From: Symsagittifera roscoffensis
Taxonomy: Eukaryota
DNA: 64,000 nt
NCBI RefSeq assembly: GCF_963678635.1
Contig: NC_087064.1
Span: 45,921,437-45,985,436 of the forward strand
Direction of reading: 5' to 3'
Numbering within the stretch: position 1 is the stretch's first letter; the number at the start of each line of letters is the position of its first letter. The notes under the pieces were generated by a model, which worked only from the letters and a program-made list of their open reading frames with translations, had not been told where the DNA came from and ran no database searches. Of this stretch, positions 2,791 through 32,705 are shown in pieces. The translations under genes and the position numbers were made by a program.

Positions 2791-3538
2791 ATAAAAATAC
2801 TCGTAGTAACCCTAATATTTACAAAAAAGAGTCATAAATTTTCCATATATTTAGAAAAATTGTTTGATTAATTACAAAAAACGAAAAACATGTTGATTCT
2901 TAGGTCGAGAGTTTGACCGTAAGAAGCATAACAAAACATACTTGAATTCAATTTTTATTTCACTGAGATGCAGAGTAACGAATTTTAAACTAAGAGTGTA
3001 TAATCTGGCAAATTTTTGCTTAACTTTTTCTAAAAAGCGTTAAAATTGTAAAGTCAAGCAAACGCTTTTGCTTATTTTTTTTGCATCTTCAGATTTCAAA
3101 AAACTAAACTACTCTGTACAAAATGATCAAAAATCCTGAAAAGTGTCATTTGAGTCATTTCTTTCAAATTTAAAAAAATTAAGCAATCAAATTTCACAGA
3201 TATAACTAAAATTTTGTTAGAAGCATGATGTAACAATTTCAATAATTTACAATTTCTTTTTGTTGCTAATTTCATGCTAACAAGTAAGTGATTTAAATAC
3301 TTTTGGTTTCAGCCGAATTTTATCAATTCTAGAACAATGGCCTTAGTGTAAACTCCCTACTTCAAACTCATCGAGCGCAACAATTGCCGGTCTCCCATTC
3401 CTATTGTTACAATACTAGTTTGTGCAATCAGAAATGCCAATTTTCGAGATGTGTTTGGTGTCTATATTGTGAACTGTAAAATATGATGTAGTAATTTTGC
3501 TGCCCGCAGCACCTCTTCAGGATCACCCTTTACTGTTT

Positions 3539-4871
3539 TCATAATATCTTTAATGTAACGGAGAAAAAGTTAGCCTGCTGCACTGAATTGTTTTTCTCCC
3601 TTATCGCGGTGCATTTTCTGCAGTACCAGTCGGTTTCACTTATATTTCGATGCTCATCATCTGATATATCACCGCATTTTACGTGATACGAGTTCAAACA
3701 GCATTCGCATCCCACACCTTTTGACACGTACGTGACTTTCTTATTGCACTCGAGACATATTCCATTAGGTTCTTTTTCGGGCATAAACTTTTCACGAATA
3801 TCCCCCCGGAAGTTCAGTTTCGTACTGCTTCAGCCAAAGGTTTGCTATAAAACGACAATAGTTGCCCCTTTTGCCGAACCATTTTTTCTGAACATACTAT
3901 GTTTCACTGCACTTGAAATGGACTTGACTAACTACCATGTTCAACCGTCTCTTCATGGTTTTCCTAGCACCTGACGGCAGTTCATCTTGCTGATACAGCT
4001 TTCTCAGAGCTATGTTTAGTGCTTCTTTGAGTGAATCAATTGTATACAAACTCTTCACATCTAGAGATAGCAAGATTTCCTTTAGCTCAAGACTAATGAT
4101 CTCTCAGATTTTTCTTGCTTCTAGTGAGTTGGTTTTGATGTTTGCGCCCTCAATTTTTTCGGAAATTTTTGCAAGAACCTTGTTCAGGTTAAACTAACAG
4201 CTACCAGGCAATGAGAGGACCGGTCTTAATAGGGTTCTCTGTTTACGCACCTTGGTTTACCCAAAAAGCCTGGCGGGCTGCCTCCGAGTACACCTCATTC
4301 TTGTGTAGAGATTCTCACTTTTTTTCGTCTTTTTGCTCGTAGCCAACAAATCCTTATTGATATGTTTTTCTATCTTCATAATGATCGAATCACATGTTCC
4401 TTTGCTTTCGCTGACCTTGATTTAAATCTAACAAATCCGATAGTTATTTCTCGTAGGTAACCCTCCTCATTACGCAAAAACCAACGCCCATGTCATACGG
4501 TACCCCAACCAATCCATTACTCCTCAGATAATTTCGGGCCTTCCGAACGCCCTTGTCAGCTGGTGTTGGTTTCCCGCTTTTAGAATAGGCTTTTGCCACT
4601 GCTTCGATTTCACAAAGAGCCTTCCCAGGGACTTTTTGATATTTGAGATCCGAAAGAAAGATGTTAACATCGGCGAGAAAGTGTGTCTCACTAAATTTAT
4701 CCCTGACAGGATGTTTCGGCTCTAATTCCAACAGTTGTTGTACCCAATAAGGTAATCCAACATCATCAAGAGCTTTTAATGAACCCTTTTAATGAGGTCG
4801 ATCCTGCCTTTCTGATGGTTTAATTAGTTTTTTTTCATGGTTCTCTGTAACTTCTGCTGTTGTTGTTGTTA

Positions 4872-4927
<56 letters not shown>

Positions 4928-4929
4928 GC

Positions 4930-4966
<37 letters not shown>

Positions 4967-5022
4967 GCTGTTGTTGTTGTTGTTGTTGTTAATGTTGTTG
5001 TTGTTGTTGTTGGTGGTGGTGG

Positions 5023-5077
<55 letters not shown>

Positions 5078-5491
5078 GGTGGTGGTGTTGTTGTTGTTTT
5101 CTGTCCCCTGAGACTTGGGTATTTCATTACCGAAGGCCAAAACTTCTCATCTACACCCCTCTGTACTGCGCCTTTCGCCTTTTCCAGTTTTCTCTTGAAG
5201 TTTTTCTCATCTGTCCTTGCCTTGGTTAATCTCCGTTTCTAAAAGTCTTGTCTGAAAATTATGTACCGCTTGGTCCAAAAACATCCCATTTTCCGGTTCC
5301 CTCAACCTCAAAAAATTATGTATATTGTCGTTTTCAAAACATCCTCTCGGAAATTTACCACGCTGGTGGCAGTTGATAAATATAAAATATATGGATGCAT
5401 AATCACAGACTAATTTCAAAGTGCGTTTCTTTTTAAGGTCCAAATCAAGTTTGGAGGTTCGAGGCCTCGAGGAATAAACCTCATGTGACAC
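3539..5491 (-). mobile_element. Penelope-like element PLE-2, a diverged paralogue of PLE-1, on the minus strand. It has an N-terminal domain, an internal (AAC)n microsatellite, a 5' RT fragment, then a deletion to the C4HC3 zinc-finger linker. No GIY-YIG remains.
   Basis: Minus ORF 5207-5491 reads FPRGCFENDNIHNFLRLREP...FLDQAVHNFQTRLL. This matches the PLE-1 N-terminal CLNNDIIPHFLEFRVP...FSEQAVLNFKKRLL. Minus ORF 4444-4731 (EPKHPVRDKF..THFLADVN...LCEIEAV...PTPADKGVRKAR) aligns to PLE-1 VPKHAIKDML..IHFLADID..LCGIVA..PTDRALLRM. Minus-strand translation of ~4,150-3,960 gives RPVLS...ISLDVKSLYTIDSLKEALNIALRKLY (RT motif A). Minus ORF 3539-3784 has CLECN..x11..CECC..SYHVKC..x17..CRKC. This is homologous to PLE-1 C.KWFHANCQNISKDEYQKMGD.YW..C. 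Confidence 0.6.
4856..5097. repeat. (GTT)n, read as (AAC)n on the PLE-2 sense strand. A ~80-unit microsatellite with a few CTG/ATT/GGT variants.
   Basis: Direct reading. The ORF-track poly-L, poly-N and poly-T proteins across 4789-5140 are its six-frame images. Confidence 0.95.
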
Positions 5492-6419
5492 AATTCAAGA
5501 CAAATAACACAAAATTAACTCACCTGCTCCGTTGAAGTCTCCTCGTCAGTTTGTCCAACTATTTCCTCTCCTCTGTCCACTGTCTTTTTTCTCCACCCTC
5601 CTTCTCGTTTGCTAGTTCTTTTTCTTGTTTGAACGAAGCTTTGACAAATCAGCTGGTAGGTTGTCTTGGTGTTCGATCACAATCCGCAAAGATTTTTTTT
5701 AGCTCCAGCTGGATGTCCTGGTGTAGTCCCTGATATTCGTTCACCAGCTCCGTTCTTCTCATCCCCTTTGAAATCAGACACCCTGTAATGGAAATGACAA
5801 GAATACCCGAGCTGATGCGCTGGTTCCTGATATCTGGTGTACCGTTTCTCTGACAGTATACATTTGCGCTGATATTTGTCATTGTCTTCAAGATTTATGT
5901 CAATTCCTCTGGAGTGCAAGCTCTGTAAGTGTTTGTGCGATGGATGTTGATAGAATTACTAATAATGTCGTGCCACACCACCTTTTGACGTTTTTCCACT
6001 CCTGCAGAGTATGTTTGAGAGGTTTTTCTGCGAGTTCGTGGTATTCGAGTTTAAGGAAAGTCCCGGATTAGCCAATTTTTTGGGAAAAAAGTGTTCGTTT
6101 TTTGGGTTGCTAAGTTGTTCCAGGCGCTACAATGTACACCATTTCAATTCTAACAGGCTATTCTAACAAATCATAATTCTAACCAGGGCTCCATACAAGA
6201 ATAGAGAGATCAAAAAATCTTACAGTTCACACAGACTTTTTTGAAACGTGGACAACAACGCGGCAACAACGTGGACGGCTTTATCCTAGCTCAACATTCA
6301 AGAAAAAATAGAAAACGAAGTACGGTCTCTGATTGACCAGGGACACATGACTCGCTGAAAAAATGAAGTGACCAGCAGTTTTTTAGTCACATTGTAATAA
6401 CTGTAAAAAACTATCCAAC

Positions 6420-8700
6420 ATTGAAATTGGCAATGAATTCAAAACAAGTAAGCAAATCGTTCTATGAAAACAAGCATCGAATGCCTAACATTGACGTTTT
6501 GCTTGACAAAATTGAACACTTGCCCATGAAGTTTGAAACAAACCAAATACAACATACTTTTTCAACAATAGACGTATGCTACGAACACAGACAACTGACA
6601 ATAGACAATGACAGCCGGCTGCCATCAGACACAAAAACACATACGCATTGTAATTTTAGTTTTATCAGTGGTAGAGCTACAAAAAACTTTCAGTTCCAAA
6701 CGGGACCCTACGGGCTTACAGATATGTGCGCATAATTGTAAAAAACGAATACAGCACAATCCCTATGCAAAAGATAACATAGGAAAATTACAAAACCCTA
6801 CAGCCTTCAAATGGCTCAAAAGCTTCATTGGCTCCATTCATCATTTAAATAATTCCTACCAAACTTAGCCCAATAGTGTAGGGCCATTTTTACCTACAAC
6901 AAATTAATTCCACTGTGGATGAAACGCTGATCGCAAAAAAGCATTTAAAAAAACATTACATGCAGTACAAAACATCACCGAAAGCAGAATTTTTGTAAAT
7001 GATAGGGAGACGCGTATTGTATGCAACGCAAGTCGAGAAGGAAGAGAGGCGACTCTCGAACAAATTACACTGCACGGCTGGGCAACAATTGCATATGCGT
7101 CGCGCTTCCTAATCTCTTATGAACACAAACATTCAATCAACGAAGTGGAACTCTTGGCAGCAGTCTGACAGATTTTTCACACTAAATACAGACCACTAAG
7201 CAATAGTAAATGCTTTAGAAAGTAACAGGGGAAACAAAACCTATCAAAACCGTTGAATCAGGTGGATCGACAGACGTTTTTTGTTCAATTTTGATATAAA
7301 AACAGCTAGGAGGCAGTAAAAAGGGTATCTTTTACGACTACGAGAGGAAAACTTCTCCCCAGCAAACTGGGAAGAACATTTTGTCATTACATTAATCCCC
7401 GACTTCGTCAATTGTTTAGAATTTGAAAATAGCAGTGCTGCAAATATTTTATTGAACAATTCTCTAACCGGATATTTCGGCACGAAGAAGTCAACCTGAA
7501 CGAAATATTTAAACCTTCACATTCGATTCAAATGCAAACAGCATTCACCGTTAAAATTCAATCTTTACACACTAGACGCTCAATAGCCTTGCAACATTCC
7601 GTTCCAAGTTCTTTTGAAATTCTAAAAAAGCGATAAAATGCACAGACCTTTTATACAATGATTGCCATTAACACCGTTCAAAAGAGTCACATAAAAATGC
7701 CACAAAGGCAGTCAAGCACAATTATCAATCGCACAAACCAATTACGCCTCTTTATTGAGTCTCTTGCCAAATAACCTCCGCCCAAACTAACAATCAGCGA
7801 AGTCAAACACCAAGCGATCCCTGCGGTCGGAACCTTCACCTTCTGAAGAGTCCAGAATGAGAAAGCGGACGCGACTTGCCAAAGATTAGAGGAGGGGAGC
7901 GCTGTAGGAAGAAGACATTCCACTCTTCTGGAAAACTTGTGAAGAGTAATAGACATAGACTTCATTACAGCGGCCACAAAAAAGCTGGAGTTTTGTCTCC
8001 AATCGTCAACATGGTCAAGCAGCAGAAATGGGACAACCAAGGATTGTTATAGAACCTACTTTTACAACGTGCGGCACCGCCTGTCGTTTAGGGACAACAT
8101 CTTACTTAACGACTATAGGGTCGTGATACCGAGGGCTATACTAGTGGATGCAATGCATTCAACCCACCTGGGAAAAAATTGATGGCAGCCAAACACGTGT
8201 GGTAGCCATTCTTACACCGCGACGTAGTCTCCACCACTTAAAACTGTAAAAACTATCGAGACAAGGGTAAGGACTTTGAAGTGATATCAGACAAGCAACA
8301 CTATACCACGCTTGGCATGTTGGTAGAACCTAACAAAGAATACCAATTGGATTTCGCGGGAACTATCCGAAACAAGGAAAAGGATTTATAGTGGTTGTAG
8401 AATAATTCTCCTGTTTCCATTCGGTCAAGGTGCTTACAAATAATAATGCGGATACAATCATCTGATTTGTGCAAAATCACCTTATCAATCATCGTGTGAA
8501 CAGGCACAAAACATACGGTGCGACCAGGCACAAAACTATAGGGCCAAAAAATGTGTTTTTCACTGTAAAATTAACAAGAACAAAACTAATATATATACCA
8601 TTAGATGACCATAAGTCAATGGGTTTGTTGGAAAGGCTTATTAGAACTGTGAAACCAAGATTATAGGTAATAAGAATCGACAAAACAAACAGGTCGTATA
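6420..8700 (+). pseudogene. Ty3/gypsy-like LTR-retrotransposon pol remnant (RT, RNase H, integrase) with frameshifts and stops. Identical copy at 14,431-16,711. A ~95%-identical copy sits at 34,049-36,330.
   Basis: ORF 6421-6735: PNIDVLLDKI..FSTIDVCYEHRQLTIDNDSRLPSDTKTHTHCNFSFISGRATKNFQFQTGPYGLTDMCA (the RT P.IDDLLD..FSKLDL..GYHQI and Y.F..MPFGLTNAP block). 6608-6868 gives LKSFIGSIHHLNNSY (the FLGL.GYYRRFI block). The 35,305-35,700 copy gives VQNEKADAICQRLEE (the RNase H-end ..ADALSR motif). 8,090-8,270 gives the integrase HH..C..C region. 8,330-8,400 gives IGFRGNYPKQGKGFIVVVE.FSCF (the IDFIGPLP.S.G..YILVVVD.FSK block). 8469-8666 gives DHKSMGLLERLIRTVK (the HPQTDGQTERLNRTL block). Confidence 0.7.
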
Positions 8701-9934
8701 AACTTGCGTCGGAAGTGGCAGAGCTGATTTAAACACTTCAAATTACGCGACCACTAAGATTACGCCATTTGAAGCCCAAAATGTCAGAAAACACACCACT
8801 GAGTAACATCAGCGCCTCACCAAAACTTTCAAACCTTTAATGCTAAAACAAGAAACTTTCATATTTACATTCAAAAATAACTAATAAAGCCGGCATTACC
8901 AGCGGAGGCCAGGCGGGACCGAGAGAAAAACAGCGAGGACGTTCTAGTCCTGATGTACAGAGATACATATGCGCCAGAACCCAGAGAGCATACATACCTA
9001 CCAGAGCCAACATATAACCCACCCAATGAGAAGACTGCCACAACGACTATGGAGGACACAGTTGAAAACAGTCACAAAATAAATGCGACAACGAAACCTG
9101 GGAAAAAAGAATTCAAAGGACCAATCAAAACGTGGATGCGCACCTTAAAAAATTTCCGGTGGGTGCGTAGCTTTCATTTTCTAACCAGCCTTATGACCTG
9201 AAAAATTTTAAGCACGCCTTCTCAAGTGAAAATATATTAAACGACAAAGGACCTAGAAAAGCCAAAAGGGCGCAAACCAATAAAACACTCACAGAACAAG
9301 AAAAGCAAAACCTCGAAATAGCACCACTAGTTTTCCTACAGGATCGCTTCAAAGGTCCAGCGCACACGATTGACCCAAAAACGGGACATTGAATAGCCAG
9401 GAAAACGAGACCAGTTCCACGAAAAACGAAAAATCAAGGCACATTTGAAACTCAAATTAAAATATCCAAACGGGTCAAAATTAACTACTCAACACACCGC
9501 GTGGATCAGGGCAGACGGCAAACAACCGCGAGTAATTAGACACGATGGTCTTGCATTCATACGAGACGCAAGCGTCTACGGAAAATGAAGACCTGTGACG
9601 CTGATGGATTTTGTAGTTTATAAACATCAACCAAGAGCCAAATCTCATGTCTTAGGAGAGCGCAAACTTGCTGACAGGTGACCCTCCAAACAGACCGCCA
9701 CAACCACCAGTCCTGTGCGACCACCCCCAAAATCTATCTGAGAAGTCATTCAGCAATCGATTAACCGCAGGGCATTGGATCCACAAAAGTTGTTCGAATC
9801 TTTTGTATCGAAGACAAAACGGCCCCAAAAAAACCCAAGGACGACGAATCACAAATAAAACAACAACAAACCATACTACGAGGAAAAATGAGCCCCAAGA
9901 AGCAATCCAGAGTACTCATCAGTCAAATTGAGTT

Positions 9935-11620
9935 CCTTATCTTCAGATTCTGAAAAGAAAAGAAAAACGCCATCTCCACAGAAACCGGCCGCAAAGAGAT
10001 TAGACATAAAGCACCCCAGAACAAAACTCACCAGAATCTAGACGTTCTCCTAGGACTAGAAAAAGCGCACTCACTATAAAACTAGAAAATCTCAATCCGA
10101 TTAGCCAAATGTCGGAATCGAAAACGTCCGCAATAGTTGTATGCAGCATCGAGGAAACCGACACGCATAACAACATGCCCAACGAGACCAACAAAAACCA
10201 AGACACCCAAACAACTGATACGAAGAAGAACACAAAAGGACAAATCCTTTCGGATGGAATCACGTGTACAAAAAAAACAAGTGGATACTTCCAAGTCAGA
10301 AAATACAAGATCCAAAGAACCAAATACGCCGCATTTACACTCTCTCACCACAAAGACAAACAAATTCTTTATACATTCTCGACAGACCGAAAACGACAAA
10401 AAAATCCATTTAGCAAAAATTTTGAAACAGAAATGAATATTCTGCCTTCTATCTCCCCGGTCCGGGGTAACTCGATGACGTTCCAAAGAGAACGTGAAAC
10501 TCATATAGGACAATAACGTATCCAGAAAAAGAACCACAACAAACAAAAAACATCAATAGAGCCCCAATTAACGTGGACAAAACGTCAGACGCTAAAAAAT
10601 ATAACGACACGACGAAGAAAAGAGAGCAAAATTGATAGACTCAATTGTTCAAAAAGAGGGAAACCTTGTCCATCCCGATTTTACAGAAATACAACTAATG
10701 ATTATGAACCATACTAAAACACCAATTGGTAACTCTACTTTATTTATAGGTTTTATTGATTAGCGTATAGAAGTATGATGGTTAAATAAGTATAGACAAA
10801 AGTACTAGTTCTTGTAAGAGACTGTCTCTCAAATGAGTCGAGATCAGTGTCACCCAGACTTAAGCAGATAAGTGAGTTTAAATTGCTATTTAACCTGTTT
10901 TATTCAATCAAAGTTAGATGTTGCCAACGTAACTATGGCTTACCCTCACCTAACTGATGAGAGTATAACATGGCGCAGCCAGCAGTTTTGAAAAACACTC
11001 TCGAAAATACTCCACTGCGGCAAAAAGCCTCGGTAGAAACATTAACTGTGGGGGATATTTGCAATCAGCTGTTATTTCTGGTAATCATAGCCAAAGATGG
11101 TAGTAATCTGCAGAAATTTCATGGACCAGCAACACCAACACAAAAATCTCAGCAACCAGGTAACAAACTACCATTCAACGGGGAACCAAAACACAAGTTA
11201 GAGGTTGAGACCTGGGAAATTAGGAAAAAAGAATACAAGGGGAGAATCAATGTCAACTTCTGGACAATCTAGGACCAACTGTAGACGATTTACCGTGGGA
11301 ACAAGCGGACATGAAAAATCGCAGCTATTTTTATTTGTGTCTAGGGACAGAGGCCAAAGGCGGCAAAAAAAACCTCACTCGAACCTGAAGATACAAAATC
11401 TAACAACTAGATTTCTATGTACAGACTAGAAACAATGTCTTTAAAAAACCGAAAAAAGTATCATTTGACAGATATGAAGCGTTCACGCGCAAGCAGGGAA
11501 AAACGGAAACATTGGAGCAGATCCCCTGCGGCTTAACAGAACTCGTAGTAATAGGAAACTTCAAATGCACAACTTGTAGCGACGGAGGACGTGAGGCAGA
11601 AATTGACAGAGACCTATTCA
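9935..11620 (+). repeat. 1.68-kb sub-repeat, the founder unit of the 37.6-41.3-kb tandem array. The identical copy is at 17,946-19,631. It contains a purine tract at 9,952-9,967 and a CA|TGGCGCAGCC junction at 10,969-10,980.
   Basis: Array junction ...gaaattgacagagac|tttatcttcagattctg joins the equivalents of 11,620 and 9,935. The embedded ORFs (MSESK..., MAQPAV..., MRPGKL...) are T-poor compositional artefacts. Confidence 0.7.
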
Positions 11621-13559
11621 CAGGCAATGTGTTCAACGATGAAGTGCAAAAAGATCTGCTAGCGGAAAAGAATCTCCCGAACAAGCGTTATTTGTCAGTG
11701 TCTTCAGAATTTCTGTCAATTCCTCTGGAGTGCAAGCTCTGTAGATGTTTGTGCGATTGCTTTTGATAGAATTACTGATAATATCGTGCCACAACACCAC
11801 TTGACGTTTTTCTGCTAGAGATGCCCTGCATAGTGGGTTTGAGAGGTTTTTCTGCGAGTTCGTGGTGTTCGAGTTAAAGGAAAGTCACGGAATAGCCGAT
11901 ATTTTGGGCAGAAATTGTTCCTTCTCCGGGTTGCTAAGATATTCCAGGCTGTGGTAGAAGGAATTAGCCGCTACAATGTAGACCATTTCAATTCTAACAT
12001 TTTTTTAAAAAACCAAAAATCCAAAGGAAAAATTAAATTTACAATTCTTTGTAGGAGAGACTGTAATTGAGACTTGGCTCAACGCCGTAGAGTTTTAGAA
12101 TTTTACAACTAAATAAGTTGAGACCTACATCTAAATAAATTGTCTGACAGAGTTTTTGAAAAAATATAAATTGACTCAGTTTACTCTATTTTTGCAATTT
12201 CTTCGTGGTCTTGCAAAAAAAATTTAGCAATATAATCATGTTAACTATCTTTTGCTTAAAACTTAGACGATGCTTTGTGGTACATTCCTAAGTTTTAAAA
12301 GCAGAACTAAACAACTACAAAAAACAATTTGGTAAGCATTAAATTGAAAAAAATTGAAAAATGAAAAATATCTTTTACAATACCGCGTGAGTTTATTTCA
12401 GTTCAATTGAAAAACTCCCAGCCGATTGCAACTAAAACTCCTAATCTTTCTTATTCTCAATATTTCCCATCAAAAAGAATAAAAAATAATTACATTACTC
12501 TGAAATTTTTGCTGCAAAGCCGCGTGAATTTAACTCAATTCGATTGAAAAACTCCTAGCCGATAGCTTTCATAAAACTATTTTGGATTAACTGCAAAGTT
12601 ATCCGGATAAAAAACCAAACTGCTGTATTGTTTTTTGTGGCTCTCATTATCTTTTTCAATGGTCTATTATGTTTCAGCGCAATTGCTTTTGTTTTTTTTT
12701 GAAATTTGGTAATGAAATTTTGAATTTAGTTTTATAATGAAATAAATTAACGTGACTCTTTAGCACTTTTCTCTAATTTTCTTAATTTTTTTTATAAAAG
12801 TGTGCTTTCTTTGAAAAACTATATATACTTCGAAATAATTAACTTCAGTAAATAGCAAGGCTAGCCGGTAGTTATGCAAGTAAACTAAGCAATTCCGCAG
12901 AAAATTTGCGTCTACAAAAAAACTTGAAAACAGTTGTTTCTGTTAGGTAATGAGCGAATCTATACAAAAACCTAAGAAATAAGCATATTTTGAGGTTAAT
13001 GTAGAATATGCGTTTCTGATAACGTTTTTTTCGAAATTTTTAACAAAAAAAAACAAATAAAAAAAAACAAAAAAAAAAACAAAAAAAACTTCAATAACTC
13101 ATAATATTGGAGAAAAATGCAGTTTTTTTATTTTTTTTGCGTATTACATTTTCGGATTAAGAAGATACGACGATATGTGCCCATACTAACAGAGTCTTCT
13201 CGCGGTGTAATGTTTCAGCTGAAACGATCTAAACGCCTGAAAGCTGAACAAAATTTCTTCTATCAAAATTGCATACTGGTCAATACTTTAAAGATAGACG
13301 TGAGGGTTTATTGTGGTCTCAAACAGCTACTACTGAGGAAATTCTGGTTGAAATTTGGAGAATTTAATGAAAATGACAAGTGCACGTGGAAAATTGGGTG
13401 CGATTGTGCGGCGAACAACTGCCAGGACCCCACGTGGAAACACAGAAGCCATCCCACTACTACTACTACTAATTTTTACGGACGTAGTTGTGCATAGTTC
13501 TGATAACTTTTCAAACCATGCATCGAATCGCTGCGCTAATTCTACCTAGGAGATGGCTA

Positions 13560-13918
13560 CGCACACTTCTTACAAGAACTGATGTATGGCGACCTCTGTT
13601 AAAATATTTGAATTACTTCAAAAAAAGGTAAGAATGGCATTTGTCGAGCTTTTTTTTATTGATAAATGCTTGAATAATGATATAATTCCCCATTTTCTTG
13701 AGTTCCGTGTTCCCAAAACTGATTTTTTCTCTGAGCAAGCCGTTCTAAATTTTAAGAAAAGACTACTGAGAGATGAGATGAGAAAGTCGAAAGCTAATTT
13801 GGTTCAGCTACTGTAAAAGTTGTTGATGAAAGTAGTATCGTTTTATCCAAAAAAGTGATAAAAAGTGGCTGCCATCGGTAGTTTTCAATTTACGTCAAAA
13901 TGTCAGCACAATCATTGT
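13560..13918 (+). pseudogene. PLE-1 N-terminal-domain fragment, cut by the tandem-duplication junction. The intact continuation is at 21,570 onwards.
   Basis: ORF 13586-13816: MATSVKIFELLQKKVRMAFVELFFIDKCLNNDIIPHFLEFRVPKTDFFSEQAVLNFKKRLLRDE. This motif block is shared with the PLE-2 N-terminus. Confidence 0.55.
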
Positions 13919-16900
13919 AACAAACAAAAAGCTCTGTAAGTGTTTGTGCGATGGATGTTGATAGAATTACTAATAATGTCGTGCCACACCACCTTTTGAC
14001 GTTTTTCCACTCCTGCAGAGTATGTTTGAGAGGTTTTTCTGCGAGTTCGTGGTATTCGAGTTTAAGGAAAGTCCCGGATTAGCCAATTTTTTGGGAAAAA
14101 AGTGTTCGTTTTTTGGGTTGCTAAGTTGTTCCAGGCGCTACAATGTACACCATTTCAATTCTAACAGGCTATTCTAACAAATCATAATTCTAACCAGGGC
14201 TCCATACAAGAATAGAGAGATCAAAAAATCTTACAGTTCACACAGACTTTTTTGAAACGTGGACAACAACGCGGCAACAACGTGGACGGCTTTATCCTAG
14301 CTCAACATTCAAGAAAAAATAGAAAACGAAGTACGGTCTCTGATTGACCAGGGACACATGACTCGCTGAAAAAATGAAGTGACCAGCAGTTTTTTAGTCA
14401 CATTGTAATAACTGTAAAAAACTATCCAACATTGAAATTGGCAATGAATTCAAAACAAGTAAGCAAATCGTTCTATGAAAACAAGCATCGAATGCCTAAC
14501 ATTGACGTTTTGCTTGACAAAATTGAACACTTGCCCATGAAGTTTGAAACAAACCAAATACAACATACTTTTTCAACAATAGACGTATGCTACGAACACA
14601 GACAACTGACAATAGACAATGACAGCCGGCTGCCATCAGACACAAAAACACATACGCATTGTAATTTTAGTTTTATCAGTGGTAGAGCTACAAAAAACTT
14701 TCAGTTCCAAACGGGACCCTACGGGCTTACAGATATGTGCGCATAATTGTAAAAAACGAATACAGCACAATCCCTATGCAAAAGATAACATAGGAAAATT
14801 ACAAAACCCTACAGCCTTCAAATGGCTCAAAAGCTTCATTGGCTCCATTCATCATTTAAATAATTCCTACCAAACTTAGCCCAATAGTGTAGGGCCATTT
14901 TTACCTACAACAAATTAATTCCACTGTGGATGAAACGCTGATCGCAAAAAAGCATTTAAAAAAACATTACATGCAGTACAAAACATCACCGAAAGCAGAA
15001 TTTTTGTAAATGATAGGGAGACGCGTATTGTATGCAACGCAAGTCGAGAAGGAAGAGAGGCGACTCTCGAACAAATTACACTGCACGGCTGGGCAACAAT
15101 TGCATATGCGTCGCGCTTCCTAATCTCTTATGAACACAAACATTCAATCAACGAAGTGGAACTCTTGGCAGCAGTCTGACAGATTTTTCACACTAAATAC
15201 AGACCACTAAGCAATAGTAAATGCTTTAGAAAGTAACAGGGGAAACAAAACCTATCAAAACCGTTGAATCAGGTGGATCGACAGACGTTTTTTGTTCAAT
15301 TTTGATATAAAAACAGCTAGGAGGCAGTAAAAAGGGTATCTTTTACGACTACGAGAGGAAAACTTCTCCCCAGCAAACTGGGAAGAACATTTTGTCATTA
15401 CATTAATCCCCGACTTCGTCAATTGTTTAGAATTTGAAAATAGCAGTGCTGCAAATATTTTATTGAACAATTCTCTAACCGGATATTTCGGCACGAAGAA
15501 GTCAACCTGAACGAAATATTTAAACCTTCACATTCGATTCAAATGCAAACAGCATTCACCGTTAAAATTCAATCTTTACACACTAGACGCTCAATAGCCT
15601 TGCAACATTCCGTTCCAAGTTCTTTTGAAATTCTAAAAAAGCGATAAAATGCACAGACCTTTTATACAATGATTGCCATTAACACCGTTCAAAAGAGTCA
15701 CATAAAAATGCCACAAAGGCAGTCAAGCACAATTATCAATCGCACAAACCAATTACGCCTCTTTATTGAGTCTCTTGCCAAATAACCTCCGCCCAAACTA
15801 ACAATCAGCGAAGTCAAACACCAAGCGATCCCTGCGGTCGGAACCTTCACCTTCTGAAGAGTCCAGAATGAGAAAGCGGACGCGACTTGCCAAAGATTAG
15901 AGGAGGGGAGCGCTGTAGGAAGAAGACATTCCACTCTTCTGGAAAACTTGTGAAGAGTAATAGACATAGACTTCATTACAGCGGCCACAAAAAAGCTGGA
16001 GTTTTGTCTCCAATCGTCAACATGGTCAAGCAGCAGAAATGGGACAACCAAGGATTGTTATAGAACCTACTTTTACAACGTGCGGCACCGCCTGTCGTTT
16101 AGGGACAACATCTTACTTAACGACTATAGGGTCGTGATACCGAGGGCTATACTAGTGGATGCAATGCATTCAACCCACCTGGGAAAAAATTGATGGCAGC
16201 CAAACACGTGTGGTAGCCATTCTTACACCGCGACGTAGTCTCCACCACTTAAAACTGTAAAAACTATCGAGACAAGGGTAAGGACTTTGAAGTGATATCA
16301 GACAAGCAACACTATACCACGCTTGGCATGTTGGTAGAACCTAACAAAGAATACCAATTGGATTTCGCGGGAACTATCCGAAACAAGGAAAAGGATTTAT
16401 AGTGGTTGTAGAATAATTCTCCTGTTTCCATTCGGTCAAGGTGCTTACAAATAATAATGCGGATACAATCATCTGATTTGTGCAAAATCACCTTATCAAT
16501 CATCGTGTGAACAGGCACAAAACATACGGTGCGACCAGGCACAAAACTATAGGGCCAAAAAATGTGTTTTTCACTGTAAAATTAACAAGAACAAAACTAA
16601 TATATATACCATTAGATGACCATAAGTCAATGGGTTTGTTGGAAAGGCTTATTAGAACTGTGAAACCAAGATTATAGGTAATAAGAATCGACAAAACAAA
16701 CAGGTCGTATAAACTTGCGTCGGAAGTGGCAGAGCTGATTTAAACACTTCAAATTACGCGACCACTAAGATTACGCCATTTGAAGCCCAAAATGTCAGAA
16801 AACACACCACTGAGTAACATCAGCGCCTCACCAAAACTTTCAAACCTTTAATGCTAAAACAAGAAACTTTCATATTTACATTCAAAAATAACTAATAAAG

Positions 16901-19900
16901 CCGGCATTACCAGCGGAGGCCAGGCGGGACCGAGAGAAAAACAGCGAGGACGTTCTAGTCCTGATGTACAGAGATACATATGCGCCAGAACCCAGAGAGC
17001 ATACATACCTACCAGAGCCAACATATAACCCACCCAATGAGAAGACTGCCACAACGACTATGGAGGACACAGTTGAAAACAGTCACAAAATAAATGCGAC
17101 AACGAAACCTGGGAAAAAAGAATTCAAAGGACCAATCAAAACGTGGATGCGCACCTTAAAAAATTTCCGGTGGGTGCGTAGCTTTCATTTTCTAACCAGC
17201 CTTATGACCTGAAAAATTTTAAGCACGCCTTCTCAAGTGAAAATATATTAAACGACAAAGGACCTAGAAAAGCCAAAAGGGCGCAAACCAATAAAACACT
17301 CACAGAACAAGAAAAGCAAAACCTCGAAATAGCACCACTAGTTTTCCTACAGGACCGCTTCAAAGGTCCAGCGCACACGATTGACCCAAAAACGGGACAT
17401 TGAATAGCCAGGAAAACGAGACCAGTTCCACGAAAAACGAAAAATCAAGGCACATTTGAAACTCAAATTAAAATATCCAAACGGGTCAAAATTAACTACT
17501 CAACACACCGCGTGGATCAGGGCAGACGGCAAACAACCGCGAGTAATTAGACACGATGGTCTTGCATTCATACGAGACGCAAGCGTCTACGGAAAATGAA
17601 GACCTGTGACGCTGATGGATTTTGTAGTTTATAAACATCAACCAAGAGCCAAATCTCATGTCTTAGGAGAGCGCAAACTTGCTGACAGGTGACCCTCCAA
17701 ACAGACCGCCACAACCACCAGTCCTGTGCGACCACCCCCAAAATCTATCTGAGAAGTCATTCAGCAATCGATTAACCGCAGGGCATTGGATCCACAAAAG
17801 TTGTTCGAATCTTTTGTATCGAAGACAAAACGGCCCCAAAAAAACCCAAGGACGACGAATCACAAATAAAACAACAACAAACCATACTACGAGGAAAAAT
17901 GAGCCCCAAGAAGCAATCCAGAGTACTCATCAGTCAAATTGAGTTCCTTATCTTCAGATTCTGAAAAGAAAAGAAAAACGCCATCTCCACAGAAACCGGC
18001 CGCAAAGAGATTAGACATAAAGCACCCCAGAACAAAACTCACCAGAATCTAGACGTTCTCCTAGGACTAGAAAAAGCGCACTCACTATAAAACTAGAAAA
18101 TCTCAATCCGATTAGCCAAATGTCGGAATCGAAAACGTCCGCAATAGTTGTATGCAGCATCGAGGAAACCGACACGCATAACAACATGCCCAACGAGACC
18201 AACAAAAACCAAGACACCCAAACAACTGATACGAAGAAGAACACAAAAGGACAAATCCTTTCGGATGGAATCACGTGTACAAAAAAAACAAGTGGATACT
18301 TCCAAGTCAGAAAATACAAGATCCAAAGAACCAAATACGCCGCATTTACACTCTCTCACCACAAAGACAAACAAATTCTTTATACATTCTCGACAGACCG
18401 AAAACGACAAAAAAATCCATTTAGCAAAAATTTTGAAACAGAAATGAATATTCTGCCTTCTATCTCCCCGGTCCGGGGTAACTCGATGACGTTCCAAAGA
18501 GAACGTGAAACTCATATAGGACAATAACGTATCCAGAAAAAGAACCACAACAAACAAAAAACATCAATAGAGCCCCAATTAACGTGGACAAAACGTCAGA
18601 CGCTAAAAAATATAACGACACGACGAAGAAAAGAGAGCAAAATTGATAGACTCAATTGTTCAAAAAGAGGGAAACCTTGTCCATCCCGATTTTACAGAAA
18701 TACAACTAATGATTATGAACCATACTAAAACACCAATTGGTAACTCTACTTTATTTATAGGTTTTATTGATTAGCGTATAGAAGTATGATGGTTAAATAA
18801 GTATAGACAAAAGTACTAGTTCTTGTAAGAGACTGTCTCTCAAATGAGTCGAGATCAGTGTCACCCAGACTTAAGCAGATAAGTGAGTTTAAATTGCTAT
18901 TTAACCTGTTTTATTCAATCAAAGTTAGATGTTGCCAACGTAACTATGGCTTACCCTCACCTAACTGATGAGAGTATAACATGGCGCAGCCAGCAGTTTT
19001 GAAAAACACTCTCGAAAATACTCCACTGCGGCAAAAAGCCTCGGTAGAAACATTAACTGTGGGGGATATTTGCAATCAGCTGTTATTTCTGGTAATCATA
19101 GCCAAAGATGGTAGTAATCTGCAGAAATTTCATGGACCAGCAACACCAACACAAAAATCTCAGCAACCAGGTAACAAACTACCATTCAACGGGGAACCAA
19201 AACACAAGTTAGAGGTTGAGACCTGGGAAATTAGGAAAAAAGAATACAAGGGGAGAATCAATGTCAACTTCTGGACAATCTAGGACCAACTGTAGACGAT
19301 TTACCGTGGGAACAAGCGGACATGAAAAATCGCAGCTATTTTTATTTGTGTCTAGGGACAGAGGCCAAAGGCGGCAAAAAAAACCTCACTCGAACCTGAA
19401 GATACAAAATCTAACAACTAGATTTCTATGTACAGACTAGAAACAATGTCTTTAAAAAACCGAAAAAAGTATCATTTGACAGATATGAAGCGTTCACGCG
19501 CAAGCAGGGAAAAACGGAAACATTGGAGCAGATCCCCTGCGGCTTAACAGAACTCGTAGTAATAGGAAACTTCAAATGCACAACTTGTAGCGACGGAGGA
19601 CGTGAGGCAGAAATTGACAGAGACCTATTCACAGGCAATGTGTTCAACGATGAAGTGCAAAAAGATCTGCTAGCGGAAAAGAATCTCCCGAACAAGCGTT
19701 ATTTGTCAGTGTCTTCAGAATTTCTGTCAATTCCTCTGGAGTGCAAGCTCTGTAGATGTTTGTGCGATTGCTTTTGATAGAATTACTGATAATATCGTGC
19801 CACAACACCACTTGACGTTTTTCTGCTAGAGATGCCCTGCATAGTGGGTTTGAGAGGTTTTTCTGCGAGTTCGTGGTGTTCGAGTTAAAGGAAAGTCACG

Positions 19901-21947
19901 GAATAGCCGATATTTTGGGCAGAAATTGTTCCTTCTCCGGGTTGCTAAGATATTCCAGGCTGTGGTAGAAGGAATTAGCCGCTACAATGTAGACCATTTC
20001 AATTCTAACATTTTTTTAAAAAACCAAAAATCCAAAGGAAAAATTAAATTTACAATTCTTTGTAGGAGAGACTGTAATTGAGACTTGGCTCAACGCCGTA
20101 GAGTTTTAGAATTTTACAACTAAATAAGTTGAGACCTACATCTAAATAAATTGTCTGACAGAGTTTTTGAAAAAATATAAATTGACTCAGTTTACTCTAT
20201 TTTTGCAATTTCTTCGTGGTCTTGCAAAAAAAATTTAGCAATATAATCATGTTAACTATCTTTTGCTTAAAACTTAGACGATGCTTTGTGGTACATTCCT
20301 AAGTTTTAAAAGCAGAACTAAACAACTACAAAAAACAATTTGGTAAGCATTAAATTGAAAAAAATTGAAAAATGAAAAATATCTTTTACAATACCGCGTG
20401 AGTTTATTTCAGTTCAATTGAAAAACTCCCAGCCGATTGCAACTAAAACTCCTAATCTTTCTTATTCTCAATATTTCCCATCAAAAAGAATAAAAAATAA
20501 TTACATTACTCTGAAATTTTTGCTGCAAAGCCGCGTGAATTTAACTCAATTCGATTGAAAAACTCCTAGCCGATAGCTTTCATAAAACTATTTTGGATTA
20601 ACTGCAAAGTTATCCGGATAAAAAACCAAACTGCTGTATTGTTTTTTGTGGCTCTCATTATCTTTTTCAATGGTCTATTATGTTTCAGCGCAATTGCTTT
20701 TGTTTTTTTTTGAAATTTGGTAATGAAATTTTGAATTTAGTTTTATAATGAAATAAATTAACGTGACTCTTTAGCACTTTTCTCTAATTTTCTTAATTTT
20801 TTTTATAAAAGTGTGCTTTCTTTGAAAAACTATATATACTTCGAAATAATTAACTTCAGTAAATAGCAAGGCTAGCCGGTAGTTATGCAAGTAAACTAAG
20901 CAATTCCGCAGAAAATTTGCGTCTACAAAAAAACTTGAAAACAGTTGTTTCTGTTAGGTAATGAGCGAATCTATACAAAAACCTAAGAAATAAGCATATT
21001 TTGAGGTTAATGTAGAATATGCGTTTCTGATAACGTTTTTTTCGAAATTTTTAACAAAAAAAAAAACAAATAAAAAAAAACAAAAAAAAAAACAAAAAAA
21101 ACTTCAATAACTCATAATATTGGAGAAAAATGCAGTTTTTTTATTTTTTTTGCGTATTACATTTTCGGATTAAGAAGATACGACGATATGTGCCCATACT
21201 AACAGAGTCTTCTCGCGGTGTAATGTTTCAGCTGAAACGATCTAAACGCCTGAAAGCTGAACAAAATTTCTTCTATCAAAATTGCATACTGGTCAATACT
21301 TTAAAGATAGACGTGAGGGTTTATTGTGGTCTCAAACAGCTACTACTGAGGAAATTCTGGTTGAAATTTGGAGAATTTAATGAAAATGACAAGTGCACGT
21401 GGAAAATTGGGTGCGATTGTGCGGCGAACAACTGCCAGGACCCCACGTGGAAACACAGAAGCCATCCCACTACTACTACTACTAATTTTTACGGACGTAG
21501 TTGTGCATAGTTCTGATAACTTTTCAAACCATGCATCGAATCGCTGCGCTAATTCTACCTAGGAGATGGCTACGCACACTTCTTACAAGAACTGATGTAT
21601 GGCGACCTCTGTTAAAATATTTGAATTACTTCAAAAAAAGGTAAGAATGGCATTTGTCGAGCTTTTTTTTATTGATAAATGCTTGAATAATGATATAATT
21701 CCCCATTTTCTTGAGTTCCGTGTTCCCAAAACTGATTTTTTCTCTGAGCAAGCCGTTCTAAATTTTAAGAAAAGACTACTGAGAGATGAGATGAGAAAGT
21801 CGAAAGCTAATTTGGTTCAGCTACTGTAAAAGTTGTTGATGAAAGTAGTATCGTTTTATCCAAAAAAGTGATAAAAAGTGGCTGCCATCGGTAGTTTTCA
21901 ATTTACGTCAAAATGTCAGCACAATCATTGTAACAAACAAAAAAATG
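13919..21947 (+). repeat. 8,011-bp tandem duplication, copy 2. It runs straight on into PLE-1 copy c.
   Basis: As above. The junction aacaaacaaaaa|gctctgtaagtg at 13,918 corresponds to aacaaacaaaaaaatgaacgctgaattgc at 21,947. There the sequence continues into the P unit instead. Confidence 0.9.
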
Positions 21948-24010
21948 AACGCTGAATTGCTAAAATTGTCAAATTTCTAGGGAAAAATTCGTTAAAAAAG
22001 TTGGATGATATTAAATTGCCAATTTTTGACGAAGAATTTCTTTCGTATGTCCCAAAACATGCGATTAAGGATATGCTTAATCAAATTCATTTCCTAGCCG
22101 ATATTGACAAATTAGTTAGAAACCTGCGTGAGAATGGAATAGAGGAGGAAAAACTCTGTGGAATAGTAGCCTCCTAAAATTTGTACGCAAGGAACAACAG
22201 AGAAACACCAACTGATCGTGCACTTCTAAGAATGGTGAAATGTTTGAACGAAAATGATTTTTTTAGGTACCTTATGATAAAGGCAAGGGTATTTGTGTTA
22301 TGAAAAGGAAAACTTAAGACAAAAAACTACAAGAAATATTGAATAGTCAACAGTTTACAGAAATCGAAACTGGCACTGATATTTTGATTGTGAAAGTAAA
22401 AGAAGATATTAATAACACACTACTCGAATTGGAAAAAAACGCAGAACTAACTTAAAAATAAGTGATAAAGTTTACTCAAAACTCAGAACTAACGGAGCTC
22501 AGCCTGCTGAGTAATACGGTTTGGGTAGAGTAAGTAAAAAAGAAATACCACTCCGTCCGGTTCTATCAATTTTTGGTAGTAGTTCTCTAAACTGAAGAGC
22601 TTTTTGACCCTCCTTTTTGAAAAAAAACTTTCTGGCGCAAACATCGAAACATCTACGTTAGACGCTCGAGAAAAACTCGAAAAATTAATACTCGACGAAA
22701 ATGAACAAACTGTTTCACTAGACGTTAAGAGTCCCGTATTGGAAGCAATTGAGATTGCATTACGTAAATTGTATAGAACTGATTACGCACCAGATTTTAA
22801 AGTGCTGCTTAAGTTAGCAGTGACAAAAGTTTATTTCAAAAGCAATGGAAAAGGGTATTGCCAGAAGGATGGGTTAGCCATGGGTGCATCACTGGCAGTA
22901 ATTTCGGCTAATTTATGGATGCAATTGTACGAACAAAGAATGAACGATAAAAACGATGGCATAAAGCAAATAACATAAATAAACTCAAAAAAGTCCAAGA
23001 GGCAGCAAAAATTTTGTATGAAACAGCAAAGGTGTTGAACAGTGAAAAATGTGAAAAATGGTTTCATGCTAATTGTCAAAACATCAGTAAAGACGAATAC
23101 CAAAAAATGGGTGATATATATTGGTACTGGGAATTCTGTCGTAATTTACCAGACATTTCAACTTGTGTTAAGGAAAGAAAACCGTTCGAAAGATACAAAG
23201 ACGACAAAATTTGTGCAGTCAAAGGGGACTCAAACACGTAAATTAATAGGGTGAACTGGTTGCATTAGAACTTACCTTTTACTATAAAAAAGCCAACGAA
23301 AAAGAAGAACTTGCTTTTTTGGACATGAATATTGTTCAAAGGAAGATCACCAGCAAATGGTATCAAAAAACAACTGATACTGAAACTACTTTGAACTTTC
23401 ATAGCTGCGAACCCCTCCAGTACAAAAAGAACCTTACGGAAGGAAAATAACATAGGTTGTTTCGATATACCATTAACTGGAAGAAATTTTACAAAGCGTT
23501 AAAAACCAACGAGGAAATTGAGAAGAAAAATAAGTACCCAGAAGCCTGGACATCAAAAAAATAAAAACTACATTGAAAAGAAATCACAAACGAAAAATCA
23601 TAAACTTCACAGAAAGCAAAAACAGAAAGCAGTCGCGAGAAAATTGACAAAATGATGTTTTTTCTACAGCATCGAGGAAACTTAAGTTTGAAATCGACAG
23701 AAAAATTTCAAAGATCAAACCCGGTATTGATCATTTTCACGACGCGCAAAAAAATTGCCCGCCGTCGCTTAAGTCAACTTTTGATTGCAACCTGAAGTCT
23801 CATGTGGTTTATGAAACAAAATGTAATGAACATAGTTCAACTTATGTTGGGCAAACATGCCGAAATCTAACCATACGCATAACAGAGCATCAAAAGAATG
23901 ATTCGCCAGAAAGACAGCATGTCGCAGAATGCTGTGGACAATCTAAGGCTTTTGAATGGAGATTAATTGACAAAGGCAATGATGTTGAAAAATTACTAAC
24001 CTTATAATAA
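21590..24010 (+). mobile_element. Penelope-like element PLE-1, copy c. This is the most complete copy: N-terminal domain, RT, zinc-finger linker and GIY-YIG. It is degraded by stops and frameshifts.
   Basis: 21,599-21,829 is the N-terminal motif ORF. 21,975-22,140 reads FVKKLDDIKLPIFDEEFLSYVPKHAIKDMLNQIHFLADIDKLVRNLRENGIEEEKLCGIVAS. 22,508-22,594 reads YGLGRVSKKEIPLRPVLSIFGSSSLN. ORF 22,604-22,978 has SLDVKS and motif B. 23,014-23,241 has CEKWFHANC...YWYWEFC. 23,804-24,007 is the GIY-YIG. Confidence 0.7.
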
Positions 24011-25162
24011 GATATGTAAACGCAAGCCATGTGAACATTAGGCATTTTAGCTCGATTCAAATTTTATTGTTTCGAATTAAAACATACAGATTGACTTAAC
24101 TAAATAATTCAATCCTAGAAATAACTTTAAAAAGGTGATAAAATTGCGAAAAAATTCGTCAATGACAAACTATATCCAAAAACGAATTTCCGAAAAAACG
24201 TTTTAATGATTATGTGATACTCTTAGATACTCATAAGCTTTAATCTCAATCAATTTGATTTAAAAAAGTTTTTTAACTGTAAATACTTTGAATTTCAGTC
24301 GTATAGACTTGATGATGCTAGTTATAATTAAAACTTTACTGACTTATGAATAAGAAAAACTTTATTTTCCAAAAAGCTTCAGTTGTTTCTGCGATGTTTG
24401 TCCATAGACTGCCATAGGAGGTTTTCACTGAAGATTGGTAGAAAAAATTCTTTAACTTTTTTTTCACAGTCAAATAAGTTAAACTGCTGTTGGTAAGGAT
24501 TGCATTTGTGCTTTCAATTTGATTCCATACAAAAACTAAAATTTTGAAAAAACAGTTTTCGATAAAATGAACGCTGAATCTTCGAAGGAAGAGTAATTTG
24601 ATGGCTCTCCTGTTCCCGTCACTTGTGAGGTTCTCGTAATTGATTCTCGTATTGCTGGTAGTAGATTGTCTTTGATTTTCTAGAGATGACATACTAATTA
24701 CCAATTACGAAACCTTGAAATTGGTAGTGCATAGTGCTTAAAACTCAGATCAGCTGATGCATCATTTTATTTCCGATACACAAGAGGGCTTAATTGTCCA
24801 GTTTAGTTGTTTCTCAAGTCATATTTTCAATTACTTTGTTATACCACTCAGAAGTATTGCTGGGTAACACAAATTGCATATGACTAAAGCATTCTTAAAT
24901 AGTATTTGTTTCAATTTGTTAGCGGTCAATGGAGGTAATGCTTTGATACCGCTGGCCATTTTTCCTAATATAAATTTAATTTCACCTTGAAATGTGAGGA
25001 ATTGATCAGCAGTTAACCCTAGATTCAGATGAAAAACCATTTTGTTCTCTTCCCGAAGCATTAACCCTGGCAGATGGACTTTTATTTGTATTCGTAAAAA
25101 AATGTCGTGCAAACCCTAAATTTAATATGGTGAGGTGAACACCCCACTGGCATATCCACAAA

Positions 25163-25285
25163 GTCATAATAATAATCATAATAATAATAATCATAAAAAT
25201 AATTATAACAATAATCATAATAATAAAAAAATTAAAATCACAAAAATAGTATTAATAATAATAATCACATTAATCATGATAAAAA
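25163..25285. repeat. AT-rich minisatellite, the same family as 2,596-2,790
   Basis: Direct reading. Confidence 0.8.
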
Positions 25286-25369
25286 TACTCATAGTAACCC
25301 TAATATTTACAAAAAGGAGTCAAAAAGTTTCCGTATATTTAGAAAATTTGTTTGATTAACTGTGGCTTA

Positions 25370-27554: not shown

Positions 27555-27599
<45 letters not shown>

Positions 27600-31235: not shown

Positions 31236-31335
31236 AAAGTCATAATAATAATCATAATAATAATAATCATAATAATAATCAAAACAATAATCATAATAAT
31301 AAAAAAATAAATATCACAAAAATAGTAATATTAAA
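31236..31335. repeat. AT-rich minisatellite, same family
   Basis: Direct reading. Confidence 0.8.
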
Positions 31336-32517: not shown

Positions 32518-32603
<86 letters not shown>

Positions 32604-32614
32604 ATTGTTGTTGC

Positions 32615-32657
<43 letters not shown>

Positions 32658-32659
32658 GC

Positions 32660-32705
<46 letters not shown>

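Follow-up and report, generated by a model that had tools for sequence, protein, structure and literature searches.

A probable very young tandem duplication of 8,011 bp, formed independently of homology within a mosaic of dead transposons

Two copies of an 8-kb segment lie head to tail in the window (the whole 64,000-nucleotide stretch of DNA that was analysed) and resemble each other so closely that the duplication must be either extremely recent or an artefact, an alternative posed by an earlier note on this DNA and upheld here. Which of the two holds, and by what route such a tandem would have formed, are the questions that this locus raises. Self-BLAST aligned 5918-13930 with 13929-21943 at 99.963% identity over 8015 columns, with one mismatch and one gap, and offset scanning and direct reading likewise confirmed a tandem duplication with a period of 8011. 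Unit 1 (5918-13928, forward strand, 8011 bp) carries a T at 9344 and a run of nine A at 13045-13053, and unit 2 (13929-21941, forward strand, 8013 bp) carries a C at 17355 and a run of eleven A at 21056-21066. By offset scanning and direct reading these are the sole differences between the units, one substitution and one homopolymer length, as had first been described; the boundaries given at that time (5908, 13918/13919 and 21947/21948) had the right period and were 4-10 bp off in position. Both units are direct and contiguous, with a single novel junction that leads from the distal end to the proximal start. The difference between the A9 and A11 runs is of the type that long-read errors yield.

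The duplicated material is composed of decayed transposons. Unit 1 closes with a 3′-truncated 5′ fragment of a Penelope-like element (PLE; 13456-13928, forward strand), delimited by self-BLAST and by tblastn to P0002, an intact relative (~860 codons) that served as the reference for the position of the junction. The protein homology of this fragment covers 13622-13798 (P0002 residues 18-74), and the cut at ~codon 120 of ~860 bears out the earlier claim that the junction falls in the N-terminal region of the PLE and truncates it. [quoted passage not shown] An intact PLE body had been thought to continue past unit 2; the body is indeed contiguous there, but it is decayed, with at least six frame switches by tblastn to P0002. 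Because of this decay, Pfam matches on the raw frames are weak (GIY-YIG, E=0.0038, below Pfam's cut-off; PHD, E=0.0078), and a stitched pseudo-protein matches RVT_1 + GIY-YIG (RT/PHD/GIY-YIG) proteins with E=2e-177. In each of the copies P1, P2 and P3 the RT is followed by a C-terminal GIY-YIG, the arrangement of a canonical EN+ PLE, and this order of parts was confirmed by tblastn. Since the consensus of the three copies remains frameshifted and frame switches are common to P2 and P3, the PLE copies were already dead.

Other debris surrounds and fills the units. A second, diverged PLE remnant in inverted orientation (3396-5437, reverse strand), 3′-truncated and matching P0002 residues 1-612, lies a short way to the left of unit 1; it is split by a (TGT)~80 microsatellite and resembles P1-P3 at the protein level only. 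Within unit 1 lies a decayed LTR-retroelement pol remnant (6421-7183, forward strand; counterpart in unit 2 at 14432-15194), which has RT-like motifs from ~6421 and an RNase H at 6929-7183 (PF17919 RT_RNaseH_2, E=5e-9, 36.5 bits; cut-off 29.8); integrase-like fragments downstream of it, judged by eye, gave no Pfam match. No tRNAs were found in the window. With 154 aa as its longest ORF, no intact ORF, and the nearest host exon ~25 kb away, the duplicated material is expected, from its sequence, to have no function.

The position of the junction inside a PLE brings up an origin in the element itself, in which the tandem would have been made at retrotransposition as a partial tandem of the pseudo-LTR type. 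PLEs commonly insert as partial head-to-tail tandems, in which a 5′-truncated copy, that is, a 3′ part, stands ahead of the full copy (PMC8557442). Here, however, it is the 5′ end of the element that lies upstream, limited to codons ~1-120, and other elements account for ~7.5 kb of each 8-kb unit. The PLE is moreover dead, with frameshifts common to its copies; Rfam searches (gathering score over the whole window, E<=5 over 1-44000) returned no hammerhead ribozymes or other relevant RNA families, and these searches together with sensitive self-BLAST found no pseudo-LTR. An origin driven by the PLE can hardly be credited, and the earlier view that this is not a PLE-type partial tandem stands on the same two grounds, the 5′ nature of the upstream fragment and the ~7.5 kb per unit foreign to this PLE.

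The junction itself is more informative about the route. It lies between 13928 and 13929 (13927-13930, no strand assigned), is the sole new junction, and joins the PLE N-terminal region to the equivalent of 5918, with ...GTAACAAACAAA before it and AAGCTCTGTAAG... after it, and neither Ns nor filler bases between them. One side is ~codon 120 of the dead PLE and the other the middle of unrelated retroelement debris. The initial 2 bp of the unit (AA, 13929-13930) recur after unit 2 at 21942-21943, which amounts to a 2-bp microhomology, and at least 2 bp is reached by 19% of random breakpoint pairs in the window sequence (p=0.19). Comparison of 1.2 kb around the left breakpoint with 1.2 kb around the right one disclosed no homology beyond chance (best match 16 nt, E=0.05; local alignment score 11, with shuffled sequences averaging 9.3 and reaching at most 16). 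Sensitive self-BLAST, minus-strand matches included, detected no inverted DNA repeats, and a hairpin-based mechanism is not arguable because inverted repeats near the breakpoints are only weak (10-19 nt).

These findings bear directly on non-allelic homologous recombination (NAHR), in the form of unequal crossing-over between flanking paralogous sequences, which had originally been proposed as the cause. In favour of such an exchange, direct paralogous repeats of 94-96% identity crowd the surrounding 43 kb. They belong to an older tandem array (1-43181, forward strand) with a ~14-kb composite unit of PLE, inverted PLE, LTR-element debris and an AT-rich tail, present three times at 94-96% identity: unit A begins ~860 bp before the start of the window and ends at ~13150, unit B, which has lost a large internal part, is represented by ~21160-27200, and unit C occupies ~27200-43181. 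Unequal crossing-over may well have expanded this array, from two units to three. The new 8-kb duplication sits within it in a different register, and its breakpoints fall at non-equivalent places in the paralogous ~14-kb units. NAHR would leave a copy of the repeat at both outer edges as well as at the junction. The sequences that precede 5918 and 13929 are unrelated to each other, as are those that follow 21943 and 13928, and self-BLAST found no repeat pair 8,011 bp apart in the window. As the breakpoints share only 2 bp (AA) and no paralogous sequence, NAHR is not supported and must be considered extremely improbable.

One repeat does touch a breakpoint. Referred to as R, it is 310 bp long (5873-6182, forward strand), was detected by sensitive self-BLAST, and spans the left breakpoint; other copies of it, diverged to 76-86% identity, occupy 11689-12024, 26116-26417, 33512-33828 and 41434-41769, with none at the right breakpoint. 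Unequal LTR-LTR exchange was considered and rejected, given that the R partner is 5,816 bp away rather than 8,011 bp and that the right breakpoint is without an R copy.

Evidence on the age of the duplication and on its reality comes from a second public assembly of the same locus (ENA ERZ25878734). Its contig ctg24344l contains one unit and is colinear with the window out to a host WD40 gene, the spacing to the WD40 exon being within ~50 bp of that expected. A search with the stitched WD40 host protein yielded no homologue. Contig and window are identical over 1-1000 and ~22.6-31.8 kb; between these stretches, ~109 substitutions and 7 indels separate them. At 77 sites units 1 and 2 agree with each other and the allele differs, against 1 site at which the two units differ, and 497 bp present in both window units are missing from the allele. 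Because the lone unit of the allele differs from both units at the same 77 sites, the duplication would be recent, on one haplotype and not fixed. At the site that distinguishes the units, a C is present in the allelic contig and likewise in the older paralogue (window 37001), so T9344 is derived and C is ancestral. In self-BLAST the paralogues are unbroken across the equivalents of 5918 (33557) and of 21943, and since the allelic contig and the older paralogues both run continuously through the breakpoint positions, the one-unit state is ancestral. The haplotype comparison that the earlier note had proposed has in this way been run in part, and with a one-unit allelic contig it contradicts a two-copy state that is fixed and old. 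Heterotype false duplication, the stacking of two alleles, was ruled out separately: both units share the 77 differences and the 497 bp relative to the allele, and no Ns are present.

A different kind of artefact would leave one unit on both haplotypes, the second being a misread graph loop or a "homotype" false duplication. A difference of a single substitution and one homopolymer length is compatible with read error, false duplications occur in long-read assemblies (Ko et al. 2022, PMC9516828), and ERZ25878734 gives the locus a single unit and leaves a loop contig over. On the other hand, there is no gap between the copies, both assemblies call T and then C in successive units on an otherwise identical haplotype background, and the junction is identical at the base level in two differently built assemblies, and therefore reads that carry the junction are needed. 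An artefact of this kind is considered unlikely. It weighs against a genuine duplication that junction and copy number are known from assemblies possibly built from a single read set. In ERZ25878734 the flanks of the duplicated haplotype were not kept as a separate contig, four window-specific ORFs are not on record, and two further window ORFs are likewise absent, possibly through different gene-caller starts; because those flanks lack a contig of their own, the second assembly does not display the order flank, unit, junction, unit, flank. The junction 40-mer was absent from the JGI metagenome contigs.

The leftover contig, ctg14844c, is repeat-only and 21,004 bp long (2.62 units), and its name ends in "c", which we take to be the assembler's circular flag. 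The exact junction 40-mer occurs twice in it and a third time with one indel, in the order tail, junction, T unit, junction, C unit, junction, C unit. Its first full unit differs from unit 1 by a single 1-bp indel, and its last ~8 kb contains many 1-bp indels. At the level of sequence this contig supports the junction, and it would be compatible both with a copy number of 2 or more and with a graph-loop artefact. Its three serial junctions, in the order (tail)-T-C-C, raise the question of whether the same event and mechanism produced an array of at least three units that the window under-represents, particularly as arrays of near-identical 8-kb units that exceed typical HiFi reads become collapsed or looped by assemblers; a strict two-unit array, for its part, cannot give this order without going round the loop, which weighs against the preferred explanation given below. 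In the window, however, unique flanking sequence borders the T unit immediately on the left and the C unit on the right, and the final third of ctg14844c is of low quality. Moreover, the small repeat-only "circular" contigs of metagenome long-read assemblers often contain repeats that no read supports, and assemblers of this type frequently circularise contigs falsely and duplicate repeats (bioRxiv 10.1101/2025.04.22.649783). At least three units thus seem rather unlikely, although this reading deserves some weight.

The same contig could also point to a circle, whereby the 8,011-bp segment would have been excised as an extrachromosomal circle closed between 13928 and 5918 and then re-integrated by homologous recombination or copied by rolling circle, and might persist as a circle in the sample. 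A unit-only contig with a "c" suffix fits this course, and homologous re-integration of a monomer circle yields exactly the observed junction. If it were true, ctg14844c would be a real molecule and circle-mediated amplification of transposon debris would have been caught in the act. At 2.62 units, however, closure of the contig would join unit coordinate 9972 to 13011, which matches nothing in the window. Read instead as a two-unit circle with an untrimmed end overlap of 4,977 bp, it would measure 16,027 bp (21,004 - 4,977), or two units, and the overlap would pair the T unit with the C unit. A T/C difference between units is unexpected for fresh copies of one circle, and the frequency of false circularisation just mentioned counts against the circle as well, leaving it quite improbable.

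The explanation that probably holds is a genuine and very young tandem duplication that brought 8,011 bp of dead transposon mosaic to two or more copies on one haplotype only and arose independently of homology. The locus combines direct copies that have one junction, breakpoints that lack extended identity, and a single-copy allele, the features of a non-homologous tandem duplication copy-number variant (CNV). Such breakpoints are assigned to end-joining or to replication-associated repair, and NAHR needs long identity (PMC4056370). A homology-independent route may have made the junction either by end-joining of a pair of breaks in misaligned sister chromatids or by a replicative template switch of the FoSTeS/MMBIR type, which would have gone 8,011 bp back and started within an A-run. 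These two routes look alike in the sequence and cannot be told apart from it.

The locus offers an example of how a region built by an older ~14-kb amplification can re-duplicate in another register while leaving the plentiful homology nearby unused, and it holds a clean internal clock, with 1 difference between the copies against 77 between the alleles. Since the assemblies disagree, variously giving two units, a single unit or a "circular" contig of repeats only, the locus should be checked before it enters copy-number or transposon-count statistics.

Among known systems, false assembly duplications (Ko et al. 2022, PMC9516828) are alike in their near-identical adjacent copies, in a heterozygous and repeat-rich region, and in a further assembly of the locus with one copy. 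They differ in that the copies here are not the two alleles, no gap separates them, and the junction is repeated in a second assembly. NAHR between low-copy repeats has the same outcome, a tandem duplication within a repeat-rich region, but its defining flanking homology is missing at the new breakpoints. The pseudo-LTR partial tandems of PLEs (Arkhipova 2006; Craig et al. 2021, PMC8557442) similarly have a PLE fragment before a longer copy in the same orientation; in those the fragment is the 3′ part of a 5′-truncated copy, whereas here it is the 5′ end, 7.5 kb of foreign sequence intervenes, a hammerhead motif is absent, and the element is non-functional. The closest likeness is to the polymorphic tandem duplications (CNVs) of Drosophila and human (Cardoso-Moreira et al. 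2012, PMC4056370), which share the head-to-tail copy with one simple junction, the microhomology of 0-2 bp, the absence of filler and of flanking low-copy repeats, and the segregating state. Nothing of substance differs from them, the present case being 8 kb of wholly dead transposon sequence with a copy number of at least 2; judged by its sequence, the duplication would be an ordinary structural variant of little biological weight.

Positions 5918-13930 of the window match 13929-21943 in a self-comparison spanning 8015 columns (99.963% identity; a single mismatch and a single gap), and in a fixed-offset scan the 8,011-bp offset was perfect over 5918-13053 save position 9344, which agrees with the earlier note on both the period and the number of differences between the copies. 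Its coordinates were 4-10 bp away from the edges read directly, which place unit 1 at 5918-13928 (8011 bp) and unit 2 at 13929-21941 (8013 bp). The units differ by a substitution (T9344 in unit 1, C17355 in unit 2) and in an A-run of nine bases (13045-13053) versus eleven (21056-21066). At the junction 13928/13929, the sole novel join, ...GTAACAAACAAA is followed by AAGCTCTGTAAG... with zero filler bases, and the unit's opening AA is found again directly 3' of unit 2. The unit contains no intact genes, being made up of part of a 310-bp repeat (within which the left breakpoint falls), the decayed pol of an LTR retroelement, whose RNase H domain scores above the Pfam cut-off, ~4.5 kb of A-rich, unassigned sequence, and the 5'-most ~470 bp of a Penelope-like element (PLE); the duplicated segment is not expected to have a function. 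Taken as a whole, the tandem duplication is probably genuine, very young and heterozygous, and what it copied is 8,011 bp of dead transposon mosaic.

Exact-ORF look-ups located the locus on two contigs of a second public assembly (ENA ERZ25878734). The first, ctg24344l, is linear (468 kb) and carries one copy of the unit. Its colinearity with the window extends from before position 1 as far as a WD40 exon at 58840-59193, and the spacing departs by no more than about 50 bp from what an 8-kb unit and a 497-bp indel, as the only large differences, would predict. Once the window is de-duplicated, the two sequences are identical at 1-1000 and ~22.6-31.8 kb, with about 109 substitutions and 7 indels in between, a distribution typical of a heterozygous bubble. 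Both units and the older paralogue have the 497 bp (window 8647-9143), which are missing from the single-copy allele; this allele is therefore the one bearing a deletion, a second structural difference within the bubble. At 77 sites in the unit both window copies are alike and differ from the ctg24344l allele, while they differ from each other at one, which rejects the idea that two alleles were assembled side by side. The comparison with another haplotype that the earlier note had proposed thus gives a single unit and a two-copy state that is not fixed; the duplication originated in the lineage of a single haplotype, and its age corresponds to roughly 1% of the divergence between the alleles. 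At the equivalent of 9344, C is found in the allele as well as in the older paralogue, which makes the T of unit 1 derived.

The second contig, ctg14844c (21,004 bp), is made solely of the 8-kb unit in the window's haplotype form, and the 'c' ending of its name appears to be the assembler's circular flag. Its order is unit tail, T unit, C unit and 4 kb of another C unit, with a junction between each piece and the next; the T unit differs from unit 1 by one 1-bp indel, and the exact junction 40-mer occurs twice, with a third occurrence carrying one indel. This contig supports a junction carried by reads, both assemblies possibly stemming from one read set, and a graph-loop artefact is an improbable explanation of the chromosomal tandem. 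An array of strictly two units could yield the contig's unit order only by passage round a loop; the duplicated haplotype has two copies, possibly more. The last ~8 kb contain many 1-bp indels, and the stated closure, which would run from unit coordinate 9972 to 13011, matches nothing. A circle-mediated origin of the tandem is very improbable. Falsely circular, repeat-inflated small contigs are documented for metagenome long-read assemblers (bioRxiv 10.1101/2025.04.22.649783). The flanks of the duplicated haplotype have no separate contig in ERZ25878734, which is what would be left if an assembler pops simple haplotype bubbles and cannot pop a cycle.

The new duplication lies, in a different register, within an older tandem array (window 1-43181, by self-comparison) of three ~14-kb composite units, 94-96% identical among themselves and composed of dead transposons: a PLE, an inverted PLE, the debris of LTR elements and an AT-rich tail. 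Its outer edges, which are non-homologous, and its internal junction are sharp. Upstream sequence of ctg24344l (piece L005 8907-9770) puts the array's start at unit coordinate ~13152, ~860 bp outside the window; its end is at window 43181, unit coordinate ~13146, and the array therefore opens and closes at one point of its unit. In the middle unit the counterpart of 2871-10930, about 8 kb, has been lost. Array unit C alone contains, at 37595-41326, about 2.2 tandem copies (96-97% identical) of a 1,683-bp segment equivalent to 9937-11613, and a 274-bp tandem repeat occupies 42060-42615. Upstream of the window, beside the array, long ORFs of 1023 aa (faint RVT_1 match) and 473 aa (PHD and Exo_endo_phos matches, both weak) at L005 1962-6948 (ctg24344l 205182-210168) suggest a possibly intact non-LTR-type retroelement.

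A stitched pseudo-protein of the three PLE copies, P1 (1-3300), P2 (21469-25359) and P3 (27584-31900), matches proteins of 700-890 aa with E down to 2e-177 that bear RVT_1 and a PHD finger; a C-terminal GIY-YIG is Pfam-significant in the relative P0001 and was seen only by eye in the sequences of P0002 and P0005. By tblastn against P0002 (intact, 859 aa), P2 needs at least six frame switches to span residues 18-832, position 13928 at the junction corresponds to about codon 120, and a second, diverged, inverted PLE remnant (5437 to 3396, minus strand) lies just left of the unit. Frameshifts remain in the P1/P2/P3 majority consensus and at least four frame switches occupy identical positions in P2 and P3, so that the copies must have multiplied by DNA-level duplication of an already dead element and not by retrotransposition. 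Inside the remnant's N-terminal coding region, a (TGT)n microsatellite of ~80 repeats (4858-5098 and 32492-32738) splits the parts matching P0002 residues ~87 and ~118. Besides the C-terminal GIY-YIG, the family carries a PHD finger inside its reverse transcriptase, between motif B (GLAMGAS) and motif C (RYVDD), at 22951-23241 (P2), 29039-29329 (P3), 537-767 (P1) and 3539-3784 on the minus strand (inverted copy). The insert is likewise placed in the intact P0001 (representing 104 sequences; Pfam PHD E=4e-6), P0002 (242 sequences; 7e-6) and P0005, whose insert gave no Pfam PHD match. The only PHD-in-PLE report among the papers searched concerns algal Chlamys elements, in which, unlike here, the endonuclease is N-terminal and the insertion points differ (PMC8557442).

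The window is eukaryotic in character, with 36% G+C, few long ORFs, long microsatellites and a multi-exon WD40-repeat host gene on the minus strand (46890-59193, about 46.9-59.2 kb; Pfam WD40 E=1.8e-8); it contains no tRNA or Rfam families. Single exons of this gene match Pfam WD40, and its five stitched exon-like ORFs returned no homologue at E<=1e-5 in a search of 5.8 billion proteins. Inside the gene lies another tandem duplication (55859-62285 and 62755-64000, running past the window end), its period about 6.9 kb and its copies 98.5-98.9% identical. It takes in at least one exon-like ORF (58840-59193), and the window and the allelic contig have it in common.

Unequal crossing-over requires paralogous sequence at both breakpoints and leaves a copy of the repeat at the left edge, the junction and the right edge. 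Within 1.2 kb around each of 5917/5918 and 21943/21944, shared sequence did not exceed chance (best match 16 nt, E=0.05); the local alignment score across the breakpoints was 11, with shuffles giving a mean of 9.3 and a maximum of 16. No repeat pair 8,011 bp apart exists in the window, and the earlier note's proposal of unequal recombination between flanking paralogous sequence is accordingly not borne out. Its doubt about a PLE-type tandem was justified: in PLE partial tandems a 5'-truncated copy precedes a full copy (PMC8557442), whereas the piece lying upstream in this case is the 5' end and the unit is mostly foreign sequence, and these features, together with the dead element and the absence of a hammerhead motif in an Rfam search of the window, rule such a tandem out. 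Microhomology at the junction is 2 bp, a length that random breakpoint pairs in the window sequence reach 19% of the time, and the duplication probably formed via homology-independent joining or template-switching, with its right end in an A-run. The event is of an already well-known kind: in the classification of Drosophila and human CNVs, blunt or microhomology breakpoints are attributed to end-joining or replication-associated repair and non-allelic homologous recombination is tied to long identity, and the 8-kb duplication falls in the blunt/microhomology class (PMC4056370).
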